Made by a program: the position numbers and the translations under genes. The notes under the pieces were generated by a model. That model was not told the origin of the DNA, searched no databases, and worked only from the letters and a program-made list of their open reading frames with translations. DNA of 32,000 nt from Candidatus Saccharimonadota bacterium (GTDB taxonomy: Bacteria > Patescibacteriota > Gracilibacteria > BD1-5 > UBA2023), in NCBI GenBank assembly GCA_046350815.1, contig JAXLZO010000001.1:480001-512000 (forward strand), read 5' to 3'. How positions within the stretch are numbered: the stretch's first letter is position 1; every line of letters begins with the position of its first letter. Below are positions 1,656 through 27,440 of this stretch, one piece after another.

Positions 1656-2732
1656 ATGTCTGAGCATGTGGTTGACCATCATCATACAGAAACTCATCAA
1701 GCAAAAGATGAGACTTTCGTTGATCATAGTCAACTTCATGAAACACACGAAGAATGACATGTATCGTCACATGATGATACACATGCTCATGGAAAATGGA
1801 ATTTTCGCACAGAAGTGGCCTATCCAGCGTGGGAGTTTTCGGCGACAAGTATTGGAAATACCGCAAAAAAATTCAATTATTTTCCTTCGCTCATAGCAGC
1901 AGTCTATCTTGCAGCAGTTCTTTTTTATCAGCTGTTTTCGACGTATAGTGTTATTTTTGGAAAAGGAAATCAAATTATCGGCATCATTCTCCAATTCTTT
2001 CATAGTATTACGGTTTGGGAAATTCTTTCCACGGTAGTTATATTTTACTGTCTCATGCTTTTTTTTGGTCCCATTGCTCATGCCGGAGTCATCTCTCTTA
2101 TTGATTCCGAAGAGCATAAGCATCATCAAAGCGCGACCAAAGCATTAGGGATAGGGCTATCACATTTTTTTGATCTTTTTGAGCTTCATAATCTCGTTGG
2201 AATTTTTAACCTTCTCTCGGTTATTACTTTTTATGCGTTTCTTCTGAGATTGTTTGATTTTAGTTATATTGTCCCTATATCTTGGTTTATTTTTATATAT
2301 TTTATCTTGGCAAATATAGCCAATATGTTGTTCTCCTATGCACCTTATCATATAGTATTTTGAAAAAAAACATCGTTTCAAGCACTTACTGCATCAGCCA
2401 TTCAAGCAATTACTCATCTTGATGTTACACTGAAAGTATACTTGAACTATCTTATCGTGAGTGTGCGAACTATTTTCATAGGTATTATCATTCTCCTTAT
2501 TCCATTTCTTGCTTCGTGGCTGATTGGATGGTTTGGCTTTGAGCCAGATATTTCTACCATATTTCTTGTGATAACTATCCTAACAGCACCTTTTATCCTC
2601 TTTCTTGCTCAGGTAAATAGCGTACTAGAAATCTTTTTGATAGGATTGTGGTATAGAGCCTATCATCTCACGAATGATAGTCATGGAGGGGCAAGCACGG
2701 ATCATCATCATCATGATGATCACCACCACTAA
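1656..2732 (+). CDS. Polytopic membrane protein with His-rich N- and C-termini; function unknown, possibly metal-binding.
   Basis: ATG 1656 lies 6 nt after the upstream stop. One frame joins track ORFs 1815-2363 and 2442-2732 through TGA, ending at TAA 2730-2732. The N-terminus is MSEHVVDHHHTETH...HETHEEGHVSSHDDTHAHG (12 His in 46 aa). The C-terminus is ...SHGGASTDHHHHDDHHH. Several hydrophobic helices lie between. Confidence 0.7.
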
Positions 2733-4283: not shown

Positions 4284-5036
4284 GGGTCTAAACCAGTTGA
4301 CAGGATAAATTATCCCATAAACTTGGCTCTATGATCAGTAAAACTACCTATAGGAAAAAATCACGAATTTGAGATGCAAAAATAAGAGAAATTGTGAAAT
4401 ATTTTTCTCTGGATTTTACTTCAGATAAAACAGCGGTATTAACAGGTCTCAATCCAAAAACAACACAGGATTGGTATAGATATATCAGAAAGGCGATAGC
4501 CTTTCTCTGTGAGAGAGAAAAGAATGAAATATGGACTGGAAATGTTGAGATAGATGAGAGTTACTTCTGACCAACAAGAGTCCGATGAAAGAGAGGAAGG
4601 TGAGCTGGTATGAAGACAATAGTCTTTGGTTTACTCAAAAGAAACTGAAAAGTATATACTGAGATAGTTCCTGATGTAAAAGCAAGGACTCTCGTGCCAA
4701 TCATTCGATGAAAACTTCGTATAGAAGAGTCTGAGATTAACAGTGATGGATGGTGAGCTTATGATGGGCTTGTAGATATTGGATATGAGAAACACTACCG
4801 TGTTCATCACGGAGCAAATGAATTTGCAAGATGAACTCAACACATTAATTGAATAGAGTCATTTTGGAGTTATACCAAAAGAAGACTCTCTCAATTCAAT
4901 GGAATCAAGAAAGTCTACTTCTACTATTTTTTGAAAGAATCTGAATTCAGATATAATTGTCGTATTCAATGAAAAGATATTTATAAGGAAGTGCTAAAGT
5001 TACTTCGTCAATATAACCCGTAACTGGTTTAGACCC
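4284..5036 (+). mobile_element. IS1595-family (ISXO2-like) insertion sequence, apparently intact.
   Basis: Perfect 15-bp terminal inverted repeats gggtctaaaccagtt (4284-4298) / aactggtttagaccc (5022-5036). They are flanked by the direct repeat tagtatt (4277-4283 and 5037-5043). The element encodes a DDE_Tnp_IS1595-like transposase. Confidence 0.85.
4331..5023 (+). CDS. IS1595-family DDE transposase.
   Basis: 230-aa ORF once about 10 in-frame TGA are read as Gly. Motifs seen: IDESYFGP.RVRGKRGRGAG.KT.VFGLLKR.GKVYT, SDGWGAYDGL...GY.H..V.H...EFARG..HINGIESFWSY.KRRL..F.GI. The stop TAA 5021-5023 overlaps the right inverted repeat. Confidence 0.85.
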
Positions 5037-5816: not shown

Positions 5817-6626
5817 ATGTTATATCAAGTTGTATGCCTCGAGTCCGGGATGGGACTGGATGGTTGGACCTACCGATCAAATCAATCTCTTGCTCCTGGA
5901 ATGTTGGTGGAAGTGCCACTACGAAAGCAGCACGTTTTTGGTATGATTTTGAGAGAAATATCGAATGAAGACATGACGATTCTCTATAGTGAGATTGAAC
6001 GAATTTACGACTGAGTGAGGATTATGAGTGAACAAAAAATACAAGTACTTACCTCGCTCGCTCTTGAATATGCGATGCCAATTTCCAAGATATTTGCGCT
6101 TTTTTATACCAAAGAATTACTTGCCTCGCTCGCTCATCACAAGCCTCAATCAAAGCTCGGTACTTCTCACTCCATTATTGAACCTGGTGCTGGAGAAATT
6201 CATATTACCAAGTTTATGAATCAATTTCTCCAAGATGATGGGGTTCATTCATTTCCATATGAGCGATTGAAAATCATGGGGATCGAGAATGATATGAAAC
6301 TTATCTCATCGCAATCCACTCAAAAAGAACGTCGAACAGTATGGATAGAGAGTCTTCTTGGTCAACGTTCCTCACTCTATGGGACGAGAGAAGTACTGCG
6401 TTGTCCAGTAGAACATTATTCACAAATCACATACTATCTCCCACATATTCACGACGAATGGTATCATATGCTCCATCACTATAGAATACTCGATGTTCTG
6501 GAAACTATGCGAGTATATCTCGGTATAAAAATACGCATCGTTGCCCCACGTCTGTCGAGTGAACTCATCGGTTTGTATCATTTGCATCAATATCAACTCT
6601 TTGAAGGACATATATGAAATCTATAA
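5817..6626 (+). CDS. PriA-like protein, short and degenerate (N-terminal DNA-binding region plus a remnant of helicase lobe 1).
   Basis: Track ORFs 5817-6014 and 6015-6617 join in one frame through TGA, ending at TAA 6624-6626. The N-terminus ...GMLVEVPLRKQHVFGMIL... is PriA 3'BD-like. LISSQSTQKERRTVWIESLLGQRSSLYGTREVLRCP matches the PriA pattern lHS.ls..eR...W.....G...iviGtRSAlF.P. The Walker A position reads PGAGEIH and the DEEH position reads HIHDEWYH. There is no Zn-finger region or second helicase lobe. Confidence 0.55.
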
Positions 6627-8932
6627 ATTTTCAAAAATTTCGTTATCGAATGAATTTCATGATTCGACATATGGGTCGGCTTGAACTTCTCTCATTTTTC
6701 TTTGTCTTTGTTGCATTTATTCTGCTCTCAGCAGCTTTTCGCTACACTATTATTGATGGCGATTATTATCGCACACTTGCCGATAGGCAACAAACCGCAA
6801 AGATTACGAATAGCGTCTCTCGAGGGAGTATTTATACCAAGAATGAGCCGATCGGTGTTCTTGCTACGAGTGCTGACCTCCCAGACCTTGCTATCGATCC
6901 AACTGCAAGTGGCTCGCATGATGCACTTCTGGATTTTCTCGTGCAAGTATATCGTCGAGAAGCGTGTGGTATTGCTTTTGATCTCTCATGTGTAGAACGT
7001 TCGTATGAGCTCATGCGCATGCCGCTTGCTCAAGGAGCAAAAGTTACTTCGCAAGGTCTTGATGGGACGATCCGATCTTTTTTGCAAACGAAGTTGTCAC
7101 AAGAATATGTGACAAGCTCTCTCCTCAAAGAAAATCTCACACCCAAGGAACTTGATGCTTTTGTACAGTTCACATCGAACAATCAAGTGGGATCCGGTAT
7201 TTATTTGATTGCAAATAATATATATGTAAATCCAATGCTCATATCATTGTCTGATGATCAAAAGAAAAATCTGCAGGATATATTTGGTCTGACAAATGCT
7301 GATCTTACAAAGAGCTTGCTTCAGAGAAAAGTTCGCTATATCAAAGTTCTCTCACAAATGTCTTTTGCAACGAAGGAATTTATTGATGAGAGGCTCTCCC
7401 AAACTGCATCTCAGATGGGAAATGATGTATGAGATATCAAGAATTTTATAATCATCGAGCCGAACCCATCACGTTATTATCCACAGAAGAGTGTATGAAG
7501 TCAGATTACAGGATTTGTCGATAAGAATGGTGTTGGAAAATATGGTATTGAGGCATATTTTGAAAAAGAATTACAGTGAAGAGAGGGTGTTCGAAGTGCT
7601 AAAAAAGATATCCATGGGAGGACTATTGAGAATTTTGATCTTGATAATGACCGCACTATTAATGGTTCGGACATTACACTTACGATCGACCGTAATATTC
7701 AGAAATACCTTGGTGATCGACTGGAACGAGCTACAAAGGAGTTTCGTGCAAATCGTGTGTCTGCTGTCATTCTCAATCCAAAAACAGGAGCGGTCATTGC
7801 TATGGCGAGTGCGCCAGGTTATGATCCAAATGAATATAGTCGAGTGTATGATCTTGAAATGGTAAACCCAGATGATCATGAAGATATAGGTTTTGATTTT
7901 CTCGGAATGCCACTGTTTGTGGAAGATGCTATCAAAGGAACATCAAATGTAGTAAATGGTCAAGTAGTAAAACTACGTGATGCGACAGAAGAAGAACGAG
8001 AAAACCCACTCGTGAAGAAGTATCAATACAAGAATAGTGTGGGTCCACTTGCATACATGAGTGATCCAGTTGCATCGTTATATGAACCAGGATCTATCTT
8101 TAAGCCGATAACCGTGGCCATTGGAATCGATAGTGGTGAAATTCGTCCATCTGACGTATATTATGATGCTGGATCTATCAAGATTGATCAATTTACTATT
8201 AGCAACCTTGCAAAAGAATGTATCGGACAACATACGTATACACATGCTTTGGATTGGTCGTGTAATGTGTGAATGATTGATATTGTAAAGAAAGTGGGAA
8301 AAAATATTTTCGCAGAATATATTCGTGATTTCTGATTTGGAATTCGTACAAATATCACCATGAAGGAAGAAGTATTCGCAGAGATCGAGAACGTCGATAA
8401 GTGGAGTCGATCAAAGCTCTATACGAGCTCATTCTGACAGGGTATTGCAGCAACACTCATACAAATGGCAGCAGCGTATGGGGTTCTCGCAAATGGTGGT
8501 ATCTATATGCAGCCATATCTTGTGGATTCTATCACACTCCCGAATGGACAAGTACAAAAAACTGAACCGGTAGAGATGCGTCGTGTTGTAAAGTCCGAAA
8601 CAACAAAACTCGTGACAGATATGATGGTAGAAGGCGCAACGATCTGATATGCAAAGAAAGGTGCTGTTCCATGATATAAAATTGCTGGTAAAACAGGTAC
8701 ATCGCAGATACCATCACGAGGATGATATGAGAAGGGTCCTAATGGTGAAACTATTGGACGAACCTTTACTTCATATGGCTGATTTGCTCCTGCTTATGAT
8801 CCAAAATTTGTACTGATTGTAAAAGCAGAACGACCGAGAACAGGTCAATATGCTGAGATAACAAGTGCTATCGTATTTTCAGATATTGCAAAATATCTGC
8901 TTGAATACTATGGTATACCAAAAGATCGATAA
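6614..8932 (+). CDS. Class B penicillin-binding protein (FtsI/PBP2-type transpeptidase).
   Basis: ATG 6614 overlaps the upstream gene end. Track ORFs 6614-7432, 7757-8272 and 8465-8647 join in one frame through TGA, ending at TAA 8930-8932. There is an N-terminal TM anchor. Catalytic motifs seen: SIFKP (SxxK), WSCNVG (SxN) and GKTGTS (KTG). Confidence 0.9.
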
Positions 8933-8980
8933 AACCTATACCAAAAACTAAAACTCCGTTTGTCTACAAAAAATACCTAG

Positions 8981-10060
8981 ATTCTAACCCTAAACGCAAC
9001 AAAACTTGGAAACATATGTCATGGGGAATAGAGTATGCCGATAGGCATACTCTACAACCTATATACCACATAATTTCCTATGCAACTTACTCTTGGAGAA
9101 CTCTTTGTAATAAAGGCCTTCGTATCTGAAGGATATATCGATAGTGAGATAGCGAGAAAGGTTGGACGGAACCGATCTATCCTCACTCGATTATTTCAGA
9201 AGTATGATCGTGATACATTCGATCCTGAGAAAGTTATCCGAGACCGTACGGAAAGGAAGAAGATAAGATCTCTCGCGTATTGTCGGATTCATCCATGAGG
9301 AGAACTTGCTGGCTATATCGATACAAAGATCCGGGATGGGCTCTCTCCTGATCAAGTAGCTGGAAGCTGGATCAAATACCAACAAGAGAAAGGAATCATC
9401 GAGAAGCTCTCCAAAGACACCGTGTACGCATTCGTCTATGAGCAAATGCCAGAACTCATAAAAATATACTTTCGTCGTAAAGGAAAAAAGTATCGAGATC
9501 GCAAGCAGGAGAAGGTTGTCTGAAAGTACCAGATTCAAGAAAGACGAATGATCGATGAACGACCGAAGGAAATTGAGGAGAGAGCAAGGATTGGAGACTG
9601 GGAAGGAGATACGATCATCTGAAAAGATCGTAGGTGAGCCATCTTGACTCTCGTTGAGAGAAAAACAGGGTACCTGATGGCTCATAAGTTGGAGCAAGGG
9701 AAAAACACTGAGTGAGTCACAAGTGCAGTAGAAAAACTTTGGAGTAGTATGCCTCATGAAAAAAGAAAAACTCTCACCGTAGATAACGGACGAGAGTTTG
9801 CTGATCATAAGATGTTTGAATATAGTACCAAGACGATTATTTACTTCGCTCACCCATACCATTCATGGGAGCGAGGAACCAATGAGAATACGAATGGACT
9901 CCTAAGAGAGTATATCCCAAAGAAGACTAACTTCTCCACTATAACACAGGAGCAACTTGATATTTTCGTGGAAAAGATAAACTCCAGACCAAGAAAGAGG
10001 CTTTGATACTTTACCCCCAATGAAATGTTTCATCAAGTTTGTTGCGTTTCGGTTTAGAAT
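8981..10060 (+). mobile_element. IS30-family insertion sequence.
   Basis: Imperfect terminal inverted repeats of about 28 bp: attctaaccctaaacgcaacaaaacttg (from 8981) versus the reverse complement of caagtttgttgcgtttcggtttagaat (10034-10060). Three positions differ. The transposase stop lies inside the right repeat. The exact right boundary is ambiguous because tagaat is duplicated (10055-10067). Confidence 0.8.
9080..10057 (+). CDS. IS30-family DDE transposase.
   Basis: Track ORFs 9080-9298 and 9749-10006 join in one frame through TGA, ending at TAG 10055-10057. There is an N-terminal HTH region. Motifs seen: RIGDWEGDTIIGK, TVDNGREFA, HPYHSWERGTNENTNGLLREY.PK. Confidence 0.9.
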
Positions 10061-10062
10061 TT

Positions 10063-10100
10063 AGAATACTCAACTTCTCATTGGGTATTCTTTACTTTTC
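10063..10100 (+). terminator. Intrinsic-terminator-like hairpin immediately after the IS30 right end; possibly the displaced PBP-gene terminator.
   Basis: 11-bp stem agaatactcaa (10063-10073) / ttgggtattct (10081-10091) with one G-U pair and a 7-nt loop, followed by ttacttttc. Confidence 0.45.
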
Positions 10101-10164
10101 ATAAGAACTGTGATATTCTTACTACCATACACATACACCTTGTATTTTATTGTCATCGTATACT

Positions 10165-12408
10165 ATGCAAATCTTCTCTTCGGTGAAAAAGCATTCCGCC
10201 TTCACCCTCACCGAACTCATAGTAGTCATCACCATACTCTCTATACTATCCGTGATAGGGTTTGTAGTGATGAGTCATCAGTCATCAGTAGCAAGAGATG
10301 GAAAGAGAATTAGTGATATTAAGACATTGTCAGAGAGTGCGAGAATTACCAGTGCACAGCTTCGAAAGCTTCCTACACCTATAGCAGATAGTGTCTCTCT
10401 TAGTGTGAGTGGAACATTCATTGGATACCAAGGATTCATGAGTACGAGTATTGTGAATCCTCTTGGGTATGGATCAGATAAGATCTATGACCCTCTTGAT
10501 GGAACTCCTTACACCTATCGAGTCAATCAACACTACGATAGCGCTCAGTTCATGGCATACCTTGAGAATCCAAGGTTTGAGAGGAGTATTGAGATTGCTG
10601 GAAGAAAGTTTCATGAAAATGAGAAGATTGGAATGAATGAAGGATGATTGGATGGTGGATGAAGTGGAAGAGGAGATGATAATCTGAACAGGGGGAATCA
10701 AGAAGTTGGAGTGAATGAGTTTGGAGGACAATTGAAAGGAATACAAGAGACTGCTTCGCAGTCTCTTCCTGAAACCTTCTCAGACTTTTGAGGTATGCTT
10801 TCTGCTTCACTTCGTGAAGCTCTCCCAAGAGCTTACGCTCTCGACAGCAGCAACATTGATCTCTCTTCCAGATATCCCTACTCTGCAGGAGATAGACTCT
10901 GAATCTTTCTCTCCAAGGGAAGTAAGCAACCTCTTCAGAATGGAGTGACAGGTACAGGAAGTAGAGATATCTCTTTGAGTGATGCAAGTACGCTTGATAT
11001 CATGGTAGGATCACAGTGAGCTGATGAATATGTATCCATGGATATCTCTACTTGATCTCTTCTTTCTCTGAAGGATGGAAGCTTTGATGAGAAGGCACTC
11101 TTGGGGATGAATAGTGGTACGGGAAGTGGATCAGGTTCTGGGGGTGGTGATTCTGGAGGTGGAGGAGGATGACCGGTAAGTCATATACTTACCATGGGAG
11201 AGTATAGTATTATGGGGAATACCTACTATGGATATATAGGACCACTAACTATATCTCTCTATGCAACATTTGGCGTTACTATTACAACTGTTACTCCTGG
11301 ATCACTCGTAGATGATACCGTTGATGGATATGTGATTGATAGTATGTTTGCAAATTCTACTTTTTCAGCATGGCAAACTATTCTTGCTGGTACTACGAAT
11401 ATGCCAGCAAGTATTACATTCGAGACTCCTTATGCAAATCTTAATTGTACGAGTACATCATCTCTTGGTGATATTACTCCCTATAATTGTACCGGATCTG
11501 CAGTATCTACTGATTTTTATGTTGGGTCACAGCATGATTTGGGAATAAGCTTTAATATGATAGGAAATTGCCAAAATGGCAGTACTCTCACTGATGAATC
11601 ATACTTTACCTTCAATAGTAATAGCGGGACTATAACATGATATTCGAGTAGTGGGCCAAAACAAGTAGTTATTCCACCAACTATTGGCGGTGTAAATGTT
11701 GTAAATATTGGAAGTGCGGCTTTTGCGCTTAAATGATTGAAATGCGTTAATATTCCAAATGGCATTACAAATATTTGAGAGCTTGCATTTTTCGCAAATA
11801 GTATCACCTCTGCGGTAATATCAAATAGTGTTGTAAATATTGGCATGTGAGCATTTAATAGAAATAATCTTCCAAATAGTGATGCATTCATTTACGCTCG
11901 TAATCCAGATGGATCACAAGATACAAGTACTATTATTGGTTATGGTGGTGCTCAGCGTGATAATATTGTGATTCCAAATAGCGTAACGAGTATTGGTGGA
12001 GAAAATGCATTTTATAATAATAATATTACTTCTATTATCATTCCAAATAGTGTCACAAGTCTCGGTAATTGAGCATTTGTCATGAATCAACTCACTTCGA
12101 TCAATATCCCAAATAGTGTAACAAATATTTGAACTGGTGCATTCTCAACAAATCAGCTTACATCAGTGATGATTCCAAATAGTGTAACAAATATTGGTCG
12201 AGCAGCATTTTTCAAAAATAATCTTACATCCGTGACGATTCCAAATAGTGTGACAAACATTTGACTAGATGCATTTGGAGTTCAAACAAATTCCCCTTGA
12301 AATGGTACCGTCTATGGTCCAGCATCCTGATATGTAAAAAATACCTATATCAATAACCCAGATACACAGTTTGATAAAGTGAAACTTCCAAACTACGTTG
12401 ATCAATAA
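10165..12408 (+). CDS. Type IV pilin-like N-terminal domain fused to a Gly/Ser-rich linker and C-terminal BspA-type leucine-rich repeats; putative pilus-borne adhesin.
   Basis: One frame joins track ORFs 10150-10647 and 11194-11640 through many TGA, ending at TAA 12406-12408. The start is ATG 10165 or TTG 10150. The class III signal/methylation motif is [12 protein letters not shown]|[20 protein letters not shown]. The pilin-like core ends ...[12 protein letters not shown]. The linker reads [19 protein letters not shown]. It is followed by at least 7 repeats of the IPNSVTNIG.xAFxxNxLTSVxIPNSVT type. Confidence 0.8.
11659..12262 (+). repeat. Intragenic 66-69 bp tandem periodicity encoding the LRR units.
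   Basis: t(t/c)ccaaatag recurs starting at 11972, 12041, 12107, 12173 and 12239. The spacing is 69 bp and then 66 bp, and flanking sequence is conserved. Confidence 0.8.
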
Positions 12409-12489
12409 ATCAATTCCTACACTCAGAAATAAAAATAATACAAATAATTTTTTACATACAAGACTTTATTTGTATTATTACAAAAACCT

Positions 12490-14094
12490 ATGAAATACAT
12501 CTTTGTCACCGGTGGTGTTCTCTCCGGTATTGGTAAGGGTATCGCGGCAGCCTCCATTTGAGCGATTCTCAAATGAATGGGTCAACAGGTATTTTGTCAG
12601 AAATTTGACTGATACCTCAATGTTGATCCTGGTACGATGAGTCCATTTCAACATGGAGAAGTGTTCGTGACGAATGATGGAGCTGAGACAGATCTCGATC
12701 TCGGACATTATGAACGATTTCTCGATATTAATCTCTCAAAGCTTTCATCCTTTACTTCAGGTAAGCTTTATGAAGAAATTATTACTCGCGAGAGAAAATG
12801 AGATTATTTAGGTGGGACAGTACAGATTGTCCCACATCTGACGGATCTTGTAAAAGAAAAAATTATTCAAGCGCAAAAATCAAGCGGTGCAGATATAAGT
12901 ATAGTGGAGATTGGTGGTACGATTGGTGACATGGAGAATGAGTATCTCCTAGAATCGGCACGTCAGATGCAGCATGATCTCGGACGTGAAAATGTGATTT
13001 TTGTTCATGTAGTACTTCTTCCATATCTTTGAGCAAGCAAAGAATTCAAATCAAAACCAATTCAACACTCTGTCCGTACTATGATGAGTTATGGATTGTC
13101 TCCGGATTTTTTGGTAGTTCGTGCGGATACGGAAATTGCTGATGATATGGTAGAAAAAATCGCCCGATCATGTTGAATCGTACGTGAACATGTTATATCA
13201 GCACCAACACTTGATACGATATATCGCGTTCCTCTTGCATTTGAATCACAGAATTTCTGATATGAGCTCGCAAGAGAGCTTCATATTTCACCGGTCGTAC
13301 CAAATATGGAAAAATGGACGAATCTTGTGTGCAATATTGATAGTTCTCATGAGGTTATCAATATTGCTATGGTTGGAAAATATGTTTGACTTGAAGATGC
13401 ATATTATTCTCTCAATGAATGATTACGTGCTGCTGGTTTTGCCTTTCAGAAGCGTGTAAAAATTGAATTTATCGAAGCTGAGGATGTTGAAAAACGATGA
13501 ATATCGCTTCTGTACTGATTTGACGGAATATGTATTCCAGGGTGATTTTGAACACGCTGAGTTGATGGTATGGTCCTGACGGCACAATACGCACGTGAAA
13601 ATAACATTCCTTTCTTGGGTATCTGCCTCGGATCGCAGATTATGGCAATCGAATTTGCTCGAAATGTACTTGGTATACAGGATGCATCGAGTGAGGAATT
13701 CACTCCAGAGTGATGAAATAACATTATTCATATTATGTCCGATCAGAAGAATCTGACAACAAAAGGATGAAATATGCGTCTCGGCCTTTATCCGTGTGTC
13801 ATTCGTGATGATACGCTCGCTGAAAGGGTCTACAAGGAACAAATAGCGTCATGAACGGATAATACCGTTTTTGAGCGACATCGACATCGATTTGAATTCA
13901 ATCCGACGTATCGAGATAAGATGGAAGAAAAAGGATTCATCGTGTCTGCGAGTTCACCTGATGATATGCTCGCGGAAATAGTTGAAATCAAGAATCATCC
14001 GTATATGATAGCGACTCAGGCTCATCCGGAGCTCATATCGCGTCCATTCCGACCCCATCCGTTATTTTTAGGATTTATTGGTGCCATGCTATAA
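12490..14094 (+). CDS. pyrG: CTP synthase.
   Basis: [23 protein letters not shown]... begins at ATG 12490 and the gene ends at TAA 12492+... (14092-14094), giving 534 aa once in-frame TGA is read as Gly. ERK(TGA)[12 protein letters not shown] aligns with E. coli ERRGDYLGATVQVIPH. The glutamine amidotransferase motifs GICLG and HPE are present. Confidence 0.95.
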
Positions 14095-17626: not shown

Positions 17627-19822
17627 ATGAAAGAAAAAATAATGGATCATGTCTCATACATACAACAGAGATTTGGAAAATGAGATAAAAATGAATCTTT
17701 GAGTATACGTCAGAAGATAGCCATAAGTGCTACTGTTGGTGCAATACTTGCATGAGGTGTTTATAGAGAATATTCACAACATAGTGTGTCAACTCCTATG
17801 GGTGTGGTGCGATCGAATGATAGTGCTGAAGTAGCATCTCATCCTGAGTATTATGCCACTGATAAGGTCCCCGTTGAAAGTGTAAAATGAGCCATCTCTA
17901 CACTGAATGAAGCATATCAGTTTTTATCAAAAAGTTCCGATTTTCAAGCCCTCTACCCAAATCAAGAAGATATATATGAACTTCTTCCACTCATGATCAA
18001 AGAAAGCCTACTGGATCAATCAAGAATTAGTAAAACATGAGCGGTTGGTTTGTTTCAAATGAAACCTGATGCAATAGAAGATGCAAAAAAAGCACTTACA
18101 AAAAATCTCTGAATATCAAGTGAATGACTTAACCCGAAAAAGGCACGAGACAATGCCATTCTGGGAATTGTATATTTTTCATATATTAATCCAAAACTCC
18201 TCAATGATAAGCTTCGTATTGAAAGTCAGAAAGATATGATAGATAGAGAGTTTTACTACATGTCATATAATGGATGAGCGTATCGTGTGGCGGGTATGTT
18301 GCAAAAATATCAAGAAGAATATCGAACAAAAGAATATCCAAATTGGGAGGTTTTTGCACAATGGGCTGCTAAGAAAATCGATACCCATTCAGTTCCAACT
18401 AAGAAACATTCCCCGGTATACAATACAGATTATACGAATTGGTTTTCACAATCGTTTGTTGGGGATAAACATTTAATATCGTTTTCTGGTCAAGTGCAAA
18501 CAAAAGCAGAAAAAATTCAAGAGATGATTGACTATGTGGAAGGTATCGATGCAATCGCTACAACAGATCAATCAGGCTGAACAGATGAAGAAATGGTATC
18601 ATATAGTGATGCACGATTGCCGTACAATCCATTATTAGATGTTTTTCATGGCTCTGGCCCAAAGGACCGAATGACGTACTATTTGAAGCAAAAGTTTGGA
18701 ATAACCAATAATTATGATCAGGTTGCATCTATTCCATGAAAATGAGTTCGTGCTATGCTCGACACTGCCGGTATAGATCCCACACAAGAAAATGTAGAAG
18801 AATTCTATGATTTGAATGATTTAGATGAGAGTGATCCAATTGTACGGAATGCCCGATATCTCTTGCCCCCGATTCAGGAAAAAAATGAAGAGCTGAAAAT
18901 CCCAGAATGAGATGATCTCCTTGTGGAGTCGGATATATCTACGGATATTTTTGTACAGAAAACGAAACCTGATTTTTATGCATGGTTGGAGTCGCTTCCG
19001 GTGGAAGATCAAAAACTTCGATGAAAGCTTATTATTCTAGATCCTGGTCATGGAGGTCTTGATCCATGAGCAACCCCTGTGGCACTTGGTGCTAACGATC
19101 ATCCTATTCCATATACACAAAGTGACCTCAAACCATCCAGAAGATTTGGTGAATGGAACGATACACAGAATGGTCTTTGAGATAAATATCTTCATGTCAT
19201 TGAACCAAATATATCTATGGATGTATCTCTACGACTTGCACGTGAAATACGGAAACACGGTGGAAACGTCAAAATAACGCATTATTTTCGGGATCAAATT
19301 GATAATACTGACTGGCGTTGATCGACAAGTTCCCGAGTTCCCGGACTCAGAGACGATATTGAGAAATGGGATAGCTGGGGTGATGGAAGTTGAAAATTTG
19401 ACGTGTGAGTAAAAGATGGGCTCAGAAAAAGGGTAAAGCTTCGGAATCAGTGGAAAAGTGGAAAAGATTCAGATGATGTACTCTTTCTTTCAATACATGC
19501 TGATGCAAGGCCGGGTAATCATCAATCCATTCCTCTCAATGTCTTGACGGTAAGGAATACGGGGATAATAAACCAATTTGCGCAAGATTTTGCTCAAGAA
19601 ATATGATCTGCCCGAGGTGCTGTAGCAACGGCGAAACCATCGGATAGATGACTCTATCTACTTTTACCAAAGAATTGAGCAGATAAAAAAAATGTACTTG
19701 TTGAGCTTGGTAACCTTGGATGTCCAAATACTGCTTTTGCTTTCCGATCAGCAAAAAATCGGCAAGAATATGCAGATGCTATCATTCGTGGTATACTTGG
19801 AACTATGTCAGAAAAATCATAG
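17627..19822 (+). CDS. Membrane-anchored bifunctional peptidoglycan hydrolase with a lytic transglycosylase (SLT) domain and an N-acetylmuramoyl-L-alanine amidase (Amidase_3) domain.
   Basis: One frame runs from ATG 17627 to TAG 19820-19822 with many TGA read as Gly, and it includes track ORF 18287-18580. SLT motifs seen: KESLLDQS, GAVGLFQMKP, SYNGGAYRV. Amidase_3 motifs seen: LIILDPGHGGLDPGA, VLFLSIHADA, VLVELGNL. Confidence 0.8.
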
Positions 19823-25332: not shown

Positions 25333-25848
25333 TTAAGGATTTATACGTATCAGATAGTTTCGCTTGCGCTCACCACCATATTCCACATGTTTGGTGAAAA
25401 TACCACCATTTTTCTCGATAACTTTTGTGGAGGCAATGTTATCAGCGAAGCATGTGAGAAGAAGTTTATCAAGTCCGATTTTCTTGGCTTCTGCGATGCC
25501 AAGTCTGAAGGCTTCCGTAGCATATCATTTACCACGCTCAGATGGGCGTATAGCGTACTCGATATTGCCACCAACTTTTTGAAGTTCATCAAGACTCACT
25601 TTGTGCCGAAGATAGAGTCCTCAGAGGATACGATTATCCTGCATAATGAAGAAGAGTGTCGATGGAGGAGTCCATTTTGAAACGATGGTACGATTCGTCT
25701 CGGTAATATTGAAGAATGAGTCAAAATCATCTCCAGCAAAGAGTGCTCTTGGTGAAACATTGTTAATATCTTCCAGAAGCGACCATTCTGCAATGAGCTC
25801 TTCCCATTGATCTTTATGTGAGTAATTCGGTATAATGAGTTCTAACAT
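25333..25848 (-). CDS. GNAT-family acetyltransferase, paralogue A of a tandem trio.
   Basis: Manual translation from ATG 25848 to TAA 25333-25335 with TGA read as Gly. It gives MLELIIPNYSHKDQWEELIAEW...GGNIEYAIRPSERGKGYATEAFRLGIAEAKKIGLDKLLLTCFADNIAS.KVIEKNGG. Confidence 0.75.
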
Positions 25849-25859
25849 AAGATTGAGCG

Positions 25860-26369
25860 TTAAAGTAAATTGATCCAATATCTTCGTGATTTTACTCAGT
25901 CTCTTTGCATATATCATTCAAACTTTCATCCATTTTCCTCGATCACTTTTACAGAAGCAATATTGTCATGATCACATGTAATGAGTATGCGGTCGATTCA
26001 TAGATTCTTCGCTTCTTTGAGGGCGAGTCAGAGCATTTGTGTTGCATAGCCTTTTCGTCTCGCAGATGGTCGGATACCATACCCAATATGTCCTCATGTC
26101 TCAATCAATTTTGGATGATTGATATGATAACGAATCTGGATAGCTCAGAGGATATTAGGTCCTGTATCGTCAACAAGAAAGAAAAGAGTAGAGTTGATCC
26201 CTCATTCATTGTCTGTGAGATCCTTGGTGACAATACGAAGAAAATCTTCGTATGTTTCTCACATAAAGAGTTTTCAGGGAGAAGTGGGTATTTCATGATC
26301 TCTCCATTCTCGTATCATCTCGATGCATTGATTCTTATGAGATTCATTGGGGAATTCCAGTTTGAGCAT
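25860..26369 (-). CDS. GNAT-family acetyltransferase, paralogue B.
   Basis: This gene is invisible in the standard-code track because of about 12 TGA. Manual translation runs from ATG 26369 to TAA 25860-25862. It gives MLKLEFPNESHKNQCIEMIREW...GGHIGYGIRPSARRKGYATQMLGLALKEAKNLGIDRILITCDHDNIAS.KVIEENGG. Confidence 0.75.
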
Positions 26370-26379
26370 ATTTTGTGAG

Positions 26380-26892
26380 TTAGACTGTAATCCAATATCT
26401 TCTTACCTTTTTCCTATTAAAATCAGCATGTCTCTCAAATGTTCATCCATTTGCTTCGATAGTACGGTAGGATCATACATTTTCATCAAGGCAGGTAAGC
26501 AATATTTTTTCTATTTCTAGGTTTTTTGCCTCTTGTTTTCCCAATCTCAGTGCTTCCGTTGCATAACCTTTTTTCCTTTCGGATGGGCGGATGCCATACC
26601 CGATGTGCCCACCTATTTCTCTCAAGAAATCATTTTCTATATTATGACGGATATCGAGAGCGCCGAGTATGCGATCTCGAGTCGAGTCTATGATAAAAAA
26701 GAGAGATGCTGGAACTCTGCCCTCTGGTGGATTATCACGAGCATCTCTTGTGATTTGGAGGAATTCTTCATAATTCGCACCTGCGAAGAGATTGTCAGGA
26801 TCAGTAGGGATGATTTCATGTTGCCCCCATTCCTTAATCATCTCAATATATCGATCTTTGTGGGATTCGTTCGGAAATTTAAGTTTGAGCAT
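26380..26892 (-). CDS. GNAT-family acetyltransferase, paralogue C.
   Basis: This is the internal part of track ORF 26473-27063, running from ATG 26892 through TGA to TAA 26380-26382. It gives MLKLKFPNESHKDRYIEMIKEW...GGHIGYGIRPSERKKGYATEALRLGKQEAKNLEIEKILLTC. Confidence 0.75.
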
Positions 26893-26917
26893 AATAACGA
26901 GATTAGTCTTAATATTT

Positions 26918-27262
26918 TTAATATCCTCGATCCTTGTTTTTCTGCACTTTTCGCTGGAGTGCCTCATCGAGACTCGTAACTCCAGTGGATTTGAGTAACA
27001 GAAGAAGGGTGATGAGTACATCGCTTGCTTCATTTTCAAGATCCTCGATACAAAACGCATCAACTTTCCTTTGAGAAAACGAGCATTTTGTGAATTTTCT
27101 CACTTCTGCCGCGAGCTCACCGACTTCTTCCGTGAGACACGAGAGTGCCGAGAGGGTATGCTCTGTCTGAGAGAGCGATTTCTTGATCGTGAGTTCAGGG
27201 GTTTTATCATGAATATGATCAATATATTGCATGAGCTCGTTCCACACGGTTTCTGAGATCAT
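26918..27262 (-). CDS. MazG-like nucleoside-triphosphate pyrophosphohydrolase (single-domain, 114 aa).
   Basis: Track ORF 26918-27271; ATG 27262 is preferred as the start. Motifs seen: LTEEVGELAAEVRK (the EExGE motif) and LENEASDVLITLLLL...LDEAL..K..KN..R. Confidence 0.7.
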   Translation of the reverse strand: MISETVWNELMQYIDHIHDKTPELTIKKSLSQTEHTLSALSCLTEEVGELAAEVRKFTKCSFSQRKVDAFCIEDLENEASDVLITLLLLLKSTGVTSLDEALQRKVQKNKDRGY

Positions 27263-27440
27263 AAAAAGCACACAAAAGAAATAAAAACTTTCATGTGCTT
27301 CGGTTCGATAGTGTGTCGAAAGGTGCCACCGAGGCTGTACTTGATTGATATTCTATGACGGGAATCTCCCGGAAGGTTCTACTCGGCAATACCTTTCTTC
27401 CTTCAGCTCGCGGGTGTTGGCCGCTCAGATGCTTTTATTA
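27263..27440 (-). promoter_or_regulatory. T-box-like riboswitch leader with competing antiterminator and terminator (or sequestrator) helices.
   Basis: Read on the minus strand: helix A1 GCCUCGG (plus-strand 27329-27335), then the bulge UGGCACC(U), which matches the T-box core GGUGGNACC. Helix A2 is UUCGA-CACACUA-UCGAA (27304-27320), and the A1 3' strand is CCGAAGC (27297-27303). A competing 13-bp hairpin AAGCACAUGAAAG / CUUUUGUGUGCUU (27266-27300) shares AAGC with A1. It is followed by UUU and the ATG of the MazG-like gene. The region is clearly more GC-rich than the surrounding intergenic DNA. I could not define Stem I or the specifier by eye. Confidence 0.6.

Follow-up and report, generated by a model that had tools for sequence, protein, structure and literature searches.

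What does a protein do that opens like a type IV pilin and ends in a series of BspA-type leucine-rich repeats (LRRs)? The question is raised by a 747-codon open reading frame (ORF) in a stretch of 32,000 nucleotides (nt) from Candidatus Saccharimonadota bacterium, placed in the Gracilibacteria in the GTDB lineage (assembly GCA_046350815.1, contig JAXLZO010000001.1, positions 480,001 to 512,000). We refer to this 32-kb stretch as the window and, unless another locus is named, count positions within it. An earlier note on the sequence had proposed that the ORF encodes an adhesin carried on a pilus. We conclude that the gene probably encodes a modular type IV pilin with a BspA-type LRR module, for which display on a pilus, adhesion, and binding through the LRRs are predicted. 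The gene and its parts are as follows, with amino acids abbreviated as aa, hidden Markov models as HMMs, and the per-residue confidence of the AlphaFold2 (AF2) model, the predicted local distance difference test, as pLDDT.

10165–12408, + strand: the whole modular pilin gene, 747 codons under genetic code 25, from ATG to TAA.
10165–10200, + strand: basic leader peptide of 12 aa with Ala at position −1, defined by the N_methyl and TIGR02532 HMMs and a homolog alignment.
10201–10272, + strand: mature N-terminus (FTLTE, with Phe+1 and Glu+5) and hydrophobic α1-N, aa 13–36, defined by the HMMs and alignment A1.
10273–10602, + strand: remainder of α1 and first part of the predicted pilin head, within aa 37–146, from the AF2 model and conservation.
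10603–10827, + strand: Gly-rich insert of 75 aa (aa 147–221), four of its Gly encoded by TGA, delimited by an alignment gap and pLDDT below 35.
10828–11124, + strand: family-conserved segment, aa 222–320, defined by alignment A2, with a low-confidence structure.
11125–11175, + strand: flexible Gly/Ser linker of 17 aa (aa 321–337), from its sequence and pLDDT below 35.
11176–11598, + strand: predicted β-rich middle domain with three Cys, aa 338–478, pLDDT about 68–89.
11599–12309, + strand: BspA-type LRR solenoid, aa 479–715, with an N-cap and eight units (11665–12300), from the LRR_5 HMM, a 66-nt period, and the model.
12310–12405, + strand: C-terminal cap (VYGPASGYVKNTY...KLPNYVD), aa 716–747, conserved in the homologs P0002, P0004, P0005, and P0007, pLDDT 84–93.

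The N-terminus combines the traits that characterize type IV pilins: a short basic leader, Phe+1, Glu+5, and a hydrophobic stretch. The prepilin motif recognized in the earlier note is confirmed by two models that score above their curated cut-offs, Pfam N_methyl (PF07963; 24.9 bits versus 21.2, aa 8–31) and TIGR02532 (24.1 bits versus 16.3). Alignment A1 shows no variation at F13, E17, or the hydrophobic columns, and an alternative GTG start at 10183 would yield the leader MKKHSA. Comparison of the N-terminal profile with solved structures recovered geopilin (3.5e-9), Streptococcus sanguinis PilE1 (1.3e-7), MshA (5.9e-7, over 104 residues), and GspG (1.6e-4), the matches lying mainly over α1. 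In the AF2 model, the pilin module consists of a 52-residue helix (aa 15–66) followed by strands at aa 77–91 and 117–121, with a mean pLDDT of 65 (about 60–80). The module is 75–97% identical across dozens of metagenome fragments. A pilin head fold, as predicted by this model, is plausible.

At the other end of the protein, LRR_5 (PF13306) aligns over about aa 500–705 with 131.5 bits (E = 2.2e-38; cut-off 27.7), and the HMM search suggested in the earlier note thus places both N_methyl and LRR_5 above threshold. Where at least seven repeat units had been claimed, we count eight, of 22–27 aa and in register (aa 501–712), with a 28-aa insertion (aa 573–600) between units 3 and 4; the DNA of this region has a period of 66 nt. 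The predicted model has the solenoid fold of BspA-type LRRs, with a pLDDT of 85–97 and Foldseek matches to 4fd0, 4fdw, 4cp6 (PcpA), 4fs7, and 4gt6 (E from 3e-9 to 5e-7) and to 4h09 (range for all six 3e-9 to 2e-4, probability 1.00). The structure prediction that had been proposed therefore gave a mixed result, with a confident LRR solenoid and a pilin head of moderate confidence that has no significant structural neighbor. The equivalog model for HupY/LrrG (NF047961) reached 81.5 bits against a cut-off of 1250, and the LRR region alone aligns with it. The sequence LPNYVD at the C-terminus was considered as a sortase (LPXTG) signal and rejected, since the protein ends there without a hydrophobic tail.

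Between the pilin and LRR modules, the earlier note had placed about 330 aa of low-complexity linker together with a Cys-containing middle domain. The folded domain with three Cys stands, and the remainder resolves into the 75-aa insert, a conserved segment, and a linker of only 17 aa. The Gly-rich insert is missing in most homologs; locus L082, from an independent ENA assembly of another sample, lacks the equivalent of 10606–10830. The segment that follows (aa 222–320) has near-invariant columns in alignment A2 (D227, D232, R236, P238, Y239, G242, L245, P256, and Q258), and its RYPYxxGDxLGI motif also occurs in distant Gracilibacteria pilins; it is not a linker and probably completes the pilin head as its second half. 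The middle domain has no match in a Pfam scan, and a phmmer search retrieved eight representative clusters among 1.84 billion proteins, all of them from the pilin-LRR family. Judged by these searches, it is an orphan, lineage-specific domain, and it is the most variable part of the protein between alleles. Weak matches (E 0.03–0.5) of the full model in the PDB to the reovirus sigma1 head (E about 0.03), the adenovirus fiber knob, and T5 pb9, which probably involve the middle domain, were rejected as not significant; a search of a viral library returned LRR proteins only.

With N_methyl at aa 8–31 and LRR_5 at about aa 500–705 in one ORF, the protein belongs to the modular pilins as defined by Raynaud et al. 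in 2021, which are believed to carry a binding module out on a type IV filament, with the tip as the most probable site (PMC8179133). Their InterPro survey lists IPR012902-IPR026906 as the seventh most frequent architecture, with 18 proteins and 6 more that have two copies (PMC8179133, Dataset S1), and places IPR026906 under 'no clear function' (PMC8179133). IPR026906 is the BspA-type LRR, that is, LRR_5. We know of no pilin with LRR_5 that has been characterized. The novelty implied in the earlier note was accordingly overstated, as the combination of pilin and LRR_5 had been catalogued in 2021 (PMC8179133); what is new here is a dissected example and the behavior of its family, not a new principle. 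The closest analogies are S. sanguinis PilB (pilin and vWA) and PilC (pilin and lectin), in which an N_methyl module is likewise linked to a bulky non-pilus module in a host without an outer membrane and for which adhesion is predicted (PMC8179133); the modular pilin PilB acts as an adhesin (PMC8179133). The protein described here differs from these in having three additional parts between its pilin and its LRRs, namely the Gly-rich insert, the family-conserved segment, and the orphan β domain, in its membership of a mosaic family with multiple copies, and in its use of code 25. Its repeats belong by HMM and fold to the same family as those of Tannerella BspA, PcpA (4cp6), and the Bacteroides proteins 4fd0, 4fdw, and 4fs7, which are surface-exposed and implicated in adhesion. 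In contrast, those proteins, at 14–27% identity, rely for their anchoring on lipoprotein signals, choline-binding repeats, or secretion sorting domains, whereas the protein in the window has a prepilin N-terminus.

On this basis, we hypothesize the following course of events. Prepilin peptidase would cleave after Ala−1, and PilB and PilC would pull the α1 helix out of the membrane so that it joins a type IV filament. From there, a flexible tether would hold out the β domain and the LRR solenoid; the tip or its vicinity is the most likely site, and Glu+5 and the long linker would also permit locations in the shaft. Through their concave face, the LRRs would bind a surface molecule of another cell, and retraction by a PilT-type ATPase would draw the two cells together. 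Candidate Phyla Radiation (CPR) cells are thought to be without an outer membrane, so that the displayed module would not be restricted in size by a secretin pore.

Gracilibacteria are reported both to encode and to express type IV pili (PMC11452946), and the code-25 predator Vampirococcus is reported to have a rich pilus repertoire with a presumed role in attachment (PMC8080830). We scanned genome contigs with a pilin profile; the best matches are 41–43% identical, and as the source genome and its close lineage were not included, the results provide clade context only. A conserved Gracilibacteria pilus operon (L036, 4270–12494; L030, 1–5039) contains a T2SSE ATPase (389 bits) and T2SSF/PilC, accompanied by a PilT-type ATPase, next to pilins. 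In the same operon, a 630-aa protein with a SpoIIE-type (PP2C-like) phosphatase domain is encoded between a short PilB-like ATPase (about 405 aa) and PilC, which hints at phospho-regulation of pilus assembly. The T2SSE ATPase of this type has 7,857 homologs below 1e-80; the best 120 are 68–99% identical, and the named ones among them all come from Gracilibacteria, several with near-complete genomes. In a further locus (L099, 861–8733; also L100–L102), the genes of a PilT-type ATPase (T2SSE, 170 bits), a cNMP-binding protein, and a VirD4/TrwB-like coupling ATPase of 840 aa stand immediately upstream of a tandem pair that encodes an 860-aa pilin with LRR_8 and a 493-aa pilin with LRR_5. The pilin module of this locus is 77% identical to that in the window, and the PilT-type ATPase lies 3.5 kb upstream of the pilin-LRR pair. 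Together with the published work, these relatives provide good indirect support for pilus machinery in the source genome. The prepilin peptidase motif GxGD[VI]K[LF] was not found in the flanks of 44 relatives. Other long Gracilibacteria pilins bear DUF285, Laminin_G_3, or Flg_new/Lcl_C modules, so modular pilins are the rule in this clade.

The immediate surroundings of the gene are listed here.

6614–8932: ftsI/PBP2, the upstream neighbor.
8977–10064, + strand: insertion sequence (IS) of the IS30 family with 27-nt terminal inverted repeats that are 89% complementary.
12434–12479, + strand: AT-rich perfect 14-bp hairpin, 100% complementary, a predicted possible terminator formed by inverted repeat I3 on the 3' side of the stop codon.
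12490–14094: pyrG, the downstream neighbor.

The IS30 transposase (9080–10057) has an rve integrase core, the IS end lies 100 bp upstream of the pilin ATG, and a terminator-like hairpin (10063–10091) follows this end.

Several observations weigh against the display of the protein on a pilus. No genes of the pilus machinery are present in the 32-kb window. The pilus-displayed adhesin of the earlier note is supported in part, by the gene itself (prepilin signal, pilin module, and BspA LRRs in one ORF, in agreement with the modular-pilin concept). A PilB ortholog from the source genome does not occur among the best 120 of the 7,857 matches mentioned above, and the genes of the family sit among housekeeping genes rather than in pilus operons. 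A Foldseek comparison of the pilin module with the PDB gave no significant match (best E about 0.9; a model of the type II secretion system (T2SS) pseudopilus ranked second at E 0.96); the pilin-like globular core that had been proposed is backed by conservation and by the predicted 52-residue helix and subsequent strands. The residue at −1 is Ala and not the canonical Gly, as in several of the homologs, which have Gly or Ala at this position. Ala at −1 is tolerated by PilD of Pseudomonas aeruginosa. A scan for sigma-70 consensus sites between the IS30 end and the ATG found no promoter, and given this result and the terminator-like hairpin, expression of this copy is unproven. Finally, we know of no ligand for any pilin-linked BspA LRR.

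Some of these observations would be expected if the prepilin N-terminus were nothing more than a class III signal for secretion and anchoring, a possible but rather unlikely alternative. The protein would then expose its LRRs at the surface from the membrane or from a very short pseudopilus, like the sugar-binding proteins of the Sulfolobus bindosome or the pseudopilins of type II secretion. The location of the genes outside pilus operons and their scatter among housekeeping genes would fit such a role, as would the many copies per genome and the absence of a significant structural match for the head. The tether and insert (aa 147–337) are long enough to reach outward from the membrane, and NCBIfam reports a weak GspG-like similarity (TIGR01710, E = 0.008). 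However, Glu+5 and the conservation of α1 and the head (75–97% across samples, and homogenized between paralogs) suggest selection for the packing of subunits, and those modular pilins for which studies exist occur in filaments (PMC8179133).

Another explanation concerns this copy rather than the family, and its assessment requires an account of the paralogs. At least seven dispersed mosaic paralogs, this gene among them, occur in the 1.28-Mb genome. We consider them dispersed and not clustered because the accession numbers of P0198, P0002, P0004, P0012, and P0017, all from the same contig, are spread over about 660 positions. These paralogs are:

P0198 (MFO0763754.1), 773 aa: identical to the protein in the window from SAFTLTE to the C-terminal NYVD, with a 37-aa leader (MYQFKSSSSNKS…SSCSA) and the ending …DLP versus …DQ.
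P0002, 865 aa: 98–100% identity over aa 151–400, about 50–60% in the LRRs.
P0012, 671 aa: the leader and pilin module of the gene in the window, followed by FN3 and classical LRR_8.
P0004, 774 aa: starts at Met36, without the leader and α1-N (5'-truncated).
P0017, 695 aa: begins within the conserved segment (5'-truncated).

The gene thus has its leader in common with P0012 and its body with P0198, its near-identical duplicate with a different leader, which implies different histories for the two parts. It might accordingly be a silent or decaying recent duplicate of P0198, separated from the usual upstream region of the family by a rearrangement beside the IS30 element, unexpressed, and at most a reservoir for recombination. 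We regard this as improbable. The 736 aa identical to P0198 behind a different 5' end, the nearby IS30 end with its hairpin and no promoter match, the two 5'-truncated paralogs in the genome, and the copy at the same locus of another population, cut at codon 52 by the end of a small IS, are all compatible with decay. The ORF is nevertheless fully intact: it has both a start codon and a leader, and neither TAA nor TAG interrupts its 747 codons; the leader is also used by P0012; the sequence before the ATG (TTGTATTTTATT...TATACT) resembles an element conserved upstream of family members; and the promoter scan covers sigma-70 consensus sites only.

The conserved element is AT-rich (TTTGTATTTTGTTTCAAAGTATGATGAAATA or TTGCATTTTATTAAAAAGTATGATGGAATA) and lies 45–130 nt upstream of many paralogs (L084, L086–L092, L095, L107, and others). 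A similar sequence, TTGTATTTTATTGTCATCGTATACT, directly precedes the ATG of the gene in the window (10127–10164). This element may be the promoter of the family.

There is next to no probability that an error in sequencing or assembly, or the wrong genetic code, has fused separate pilin and LRR genes: translation table 11 does break the region into many short ORFs, but all 16 internal stops that it produces in the frame of 10165–12408 are TGA, recoding extends over the window, TGA aligns with a conserved Gly of the repeats, and the pilin-to-LRR architecture recurs in more than ten homologs from independent assemblies and in the second, identical copy in the same genome. Before the terminal TAA, the frame contains neither TAA nor TAG, and every long ORF of the window has in-frame TGA codons (1–20 per ORF). 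In three LRR units (NI*ELAF, NI*TGAF, and NI*LDAF, within the repeats at 11746–12300), TGA occupies the conserved Gly of NIGxxAF, for which sister units use GGN. Because of this correspondence, the gene's own sequence supports reading TGA as Gly (code 25) against Trp (code 4). Several database homologs carry W at the repeat Gly positions. A tRNA scan of the window found no tRNA, hence no tRNA-Gly(UCA). The identical protein on record is P0001, from a Gracilibacteria contig of 1,283,673 bp, and L082 is 99–100% identical at the nt level over the LRR part and the downstream pyrG. The description of 10165–12408 as a single ORF was thus exact in its coordinates: it encodes one 747-aa protein and no frameshift needs to be invoked. 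The possibility raised in the earlier note that a frameshift or two separate genes might divide the pilin from the LRRs does not hold in view of the independent homologs, the identical second copy, and the L082 match.

Recoding also affects how the family appears in databases. In many homologs, TGA also encodes the Gly at −1, where the prepilin is cleaved (…TCC TGA TTC…), as in L081 at about 10025, L083 at about 10082, L087 at about 7018, and L099 at about 8125. Gene callers that use code 11 stop at this codon and restart at Met36, with the consequence that dozens of entries are fragments of 110–210 aa that start with MSHQSS or are without the N_methyl motif. Genes of the pilin-LRR family are thus shredded by code-11 gene calling, and since many database entries are such 110–210-aa fragments, the family is under-counted.

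Returning to the reading of the gene as a modular pilin, we asked what its family adds. Identity profiles across the paralogs are mosaic. L082, which pyrG identifies as the same locus, is 99–100% identical at the nt level from 11531 through pyrG and 63–72% identical over 11131–11530, in the middle domain, with a sharp breakpoint near 11530. At the position corresponding to codon 52, its 5' end stops in the terminal repeat of a small IS (L082, 26–40), so that the copy in this other population is either IS-truncated or interrupted there by the end of the assembly. IS ends abut the gene at this locus in both populations examined. The breakpoint fits a recombination tract or the replacement of an allele within one species, with a chimeric short-read contig as the alternative; a simple chimera is argued against, though not fully excluded, by the divergent middle domain, which matches no known paralog (55–75%).

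In related populations, members of the family range from 493 to 1,376 aa and have roughly 5 to 15 BspA units, counted with one regular expression throughout, and the comparison of LRR copy number recommended in the earlier note therefore does reveal variation. Tandem pairs of pilin-LRR8 and pilin-LRR5 genes are sometimes seen in these populations. Distinct paralogs in related samples share a pilin-module segment of ~400 nt at 97–99% nt identity, while the rest of the genes differ. Together, these comparisons show a carrier pilin module that is kept homogeneous and binding modules (LRR_5 of varied repeat number, LRR_8, and FN3) that are exchanged or replaced between copies; the paralogs probably supply alternative binding specificities.

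As a more speculative extension, about which we are doubtful, the family might form a recombination-driven adhesin repertoire of an episymbiont. The pilin carrier would serve as a portable recombination handle, and orphan β domain and LRR modules, including those of 5'-truncated and IS-flanked copies, would be exchanged between loci. If so, a 1.28-Mb genome could switch or broaden the range of host surfaces gripped by its pili, in a manner analogous to pilE/pilS or a shufflon and built from whole-domain cassettes.

Each of these two systems offers a partial parallel. Neisseria pilE/pilS likewise involves multiple copies with a conserved N-terminal and a variable C-terminal part, copies truncated at the 5' end, and mosaic alleles that fit gene conversion. 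In contrast to pilE/pilS, several copies of the family described here are complete with their own leaders, and what varies is a whole domain of 150–700 aa rather than a short hypervariable loop. Truncation and mosaicism among the copies suggest gene conversion of the pilE/pilS kind, which we treat as a lead and not as a demonstrated mechanism. In the R64 shufflon, the C-terminal segments of PilV set the recipient surface that is bound, and the alternatives are made at one locus by Rci acting on sfx repeats. The family resembles R64 PilV, as that system is cited in PMC7739484, in joining a constant N-terminal pilin part to alternative C-terminal segments. It differs in that the alternatives are separate dispersed genes. 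No segments bounded by inverted repeats, as in a shufflon, were found at the 3' end of the gene, and the only nearby genes of recombinase type are the IS30 and IS1595-type transposases.

The IS1595-type transposase belongs to a second mobile element, 5 kb upstream of the pilin gene:

4284–5036: small IS of 753 bp with perfect 15-nt terminal inverted repeats (GGGTCTAAACCAGTT) and an IS1595-like transposase.

How bacteria of the CPR (Patescibacteria) recognize and hold their hosts is largely unknown, and to our knowledge no member of the Gracilibacteria is in cultivation. Type IV pili are cited in PMC11452946 as required for host association in Saccharibacteria, which makes a pilin with its own LRR module a concrete candidate for a determinant of host recognition; that this particular protein attaches to a host remains inference. 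Oral Saccharibacteria of clade T1 have 12–24 LRR proteins per genome, with a proposed role in adherence (Shaiber et al. 2020, PMC7739484). These were proposed as an alternative to missing pilins (PMC7739484), whereas here the LRRs are fused to the pilin itself. A multi-copy, mosaic, and repeat-variable family would also provide markers of host range and strain-level variation that can be tracked in metagenomes. Further interest comes from the minimal genome's multi-copy, recombining family, from the middle domain as an orphan, and from the IS activity at the locus.

Three further observations were made elsewhere in the window. At 17627–19822 on the + strand, an SLT lytic transglycosylase domain and an Amidase_3 (N-acetylmuramoyl-L-alanine amidase) domain occur together in one protein of 731 aa; judged from these domains, it is a peptidoglycan hydrolase with two activities and could serve in remodeling of the cell's own wall or in attack on a host wall. 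On the − strand, at 25333–27294, three consecutive paralogous ORFs of about 170–300 aa share the motif GG(H/N)I(G/E)Y.IRPS.R.KGYAT and have, by eye only, the look of GNAT-type acetyltransferases. A multi-pass membrane protein encoded at 1656–2732 (+ strand), for which Pfam gives no match, has His-rich termini (…HHHTETH… and …TDHHHHDDHHH).

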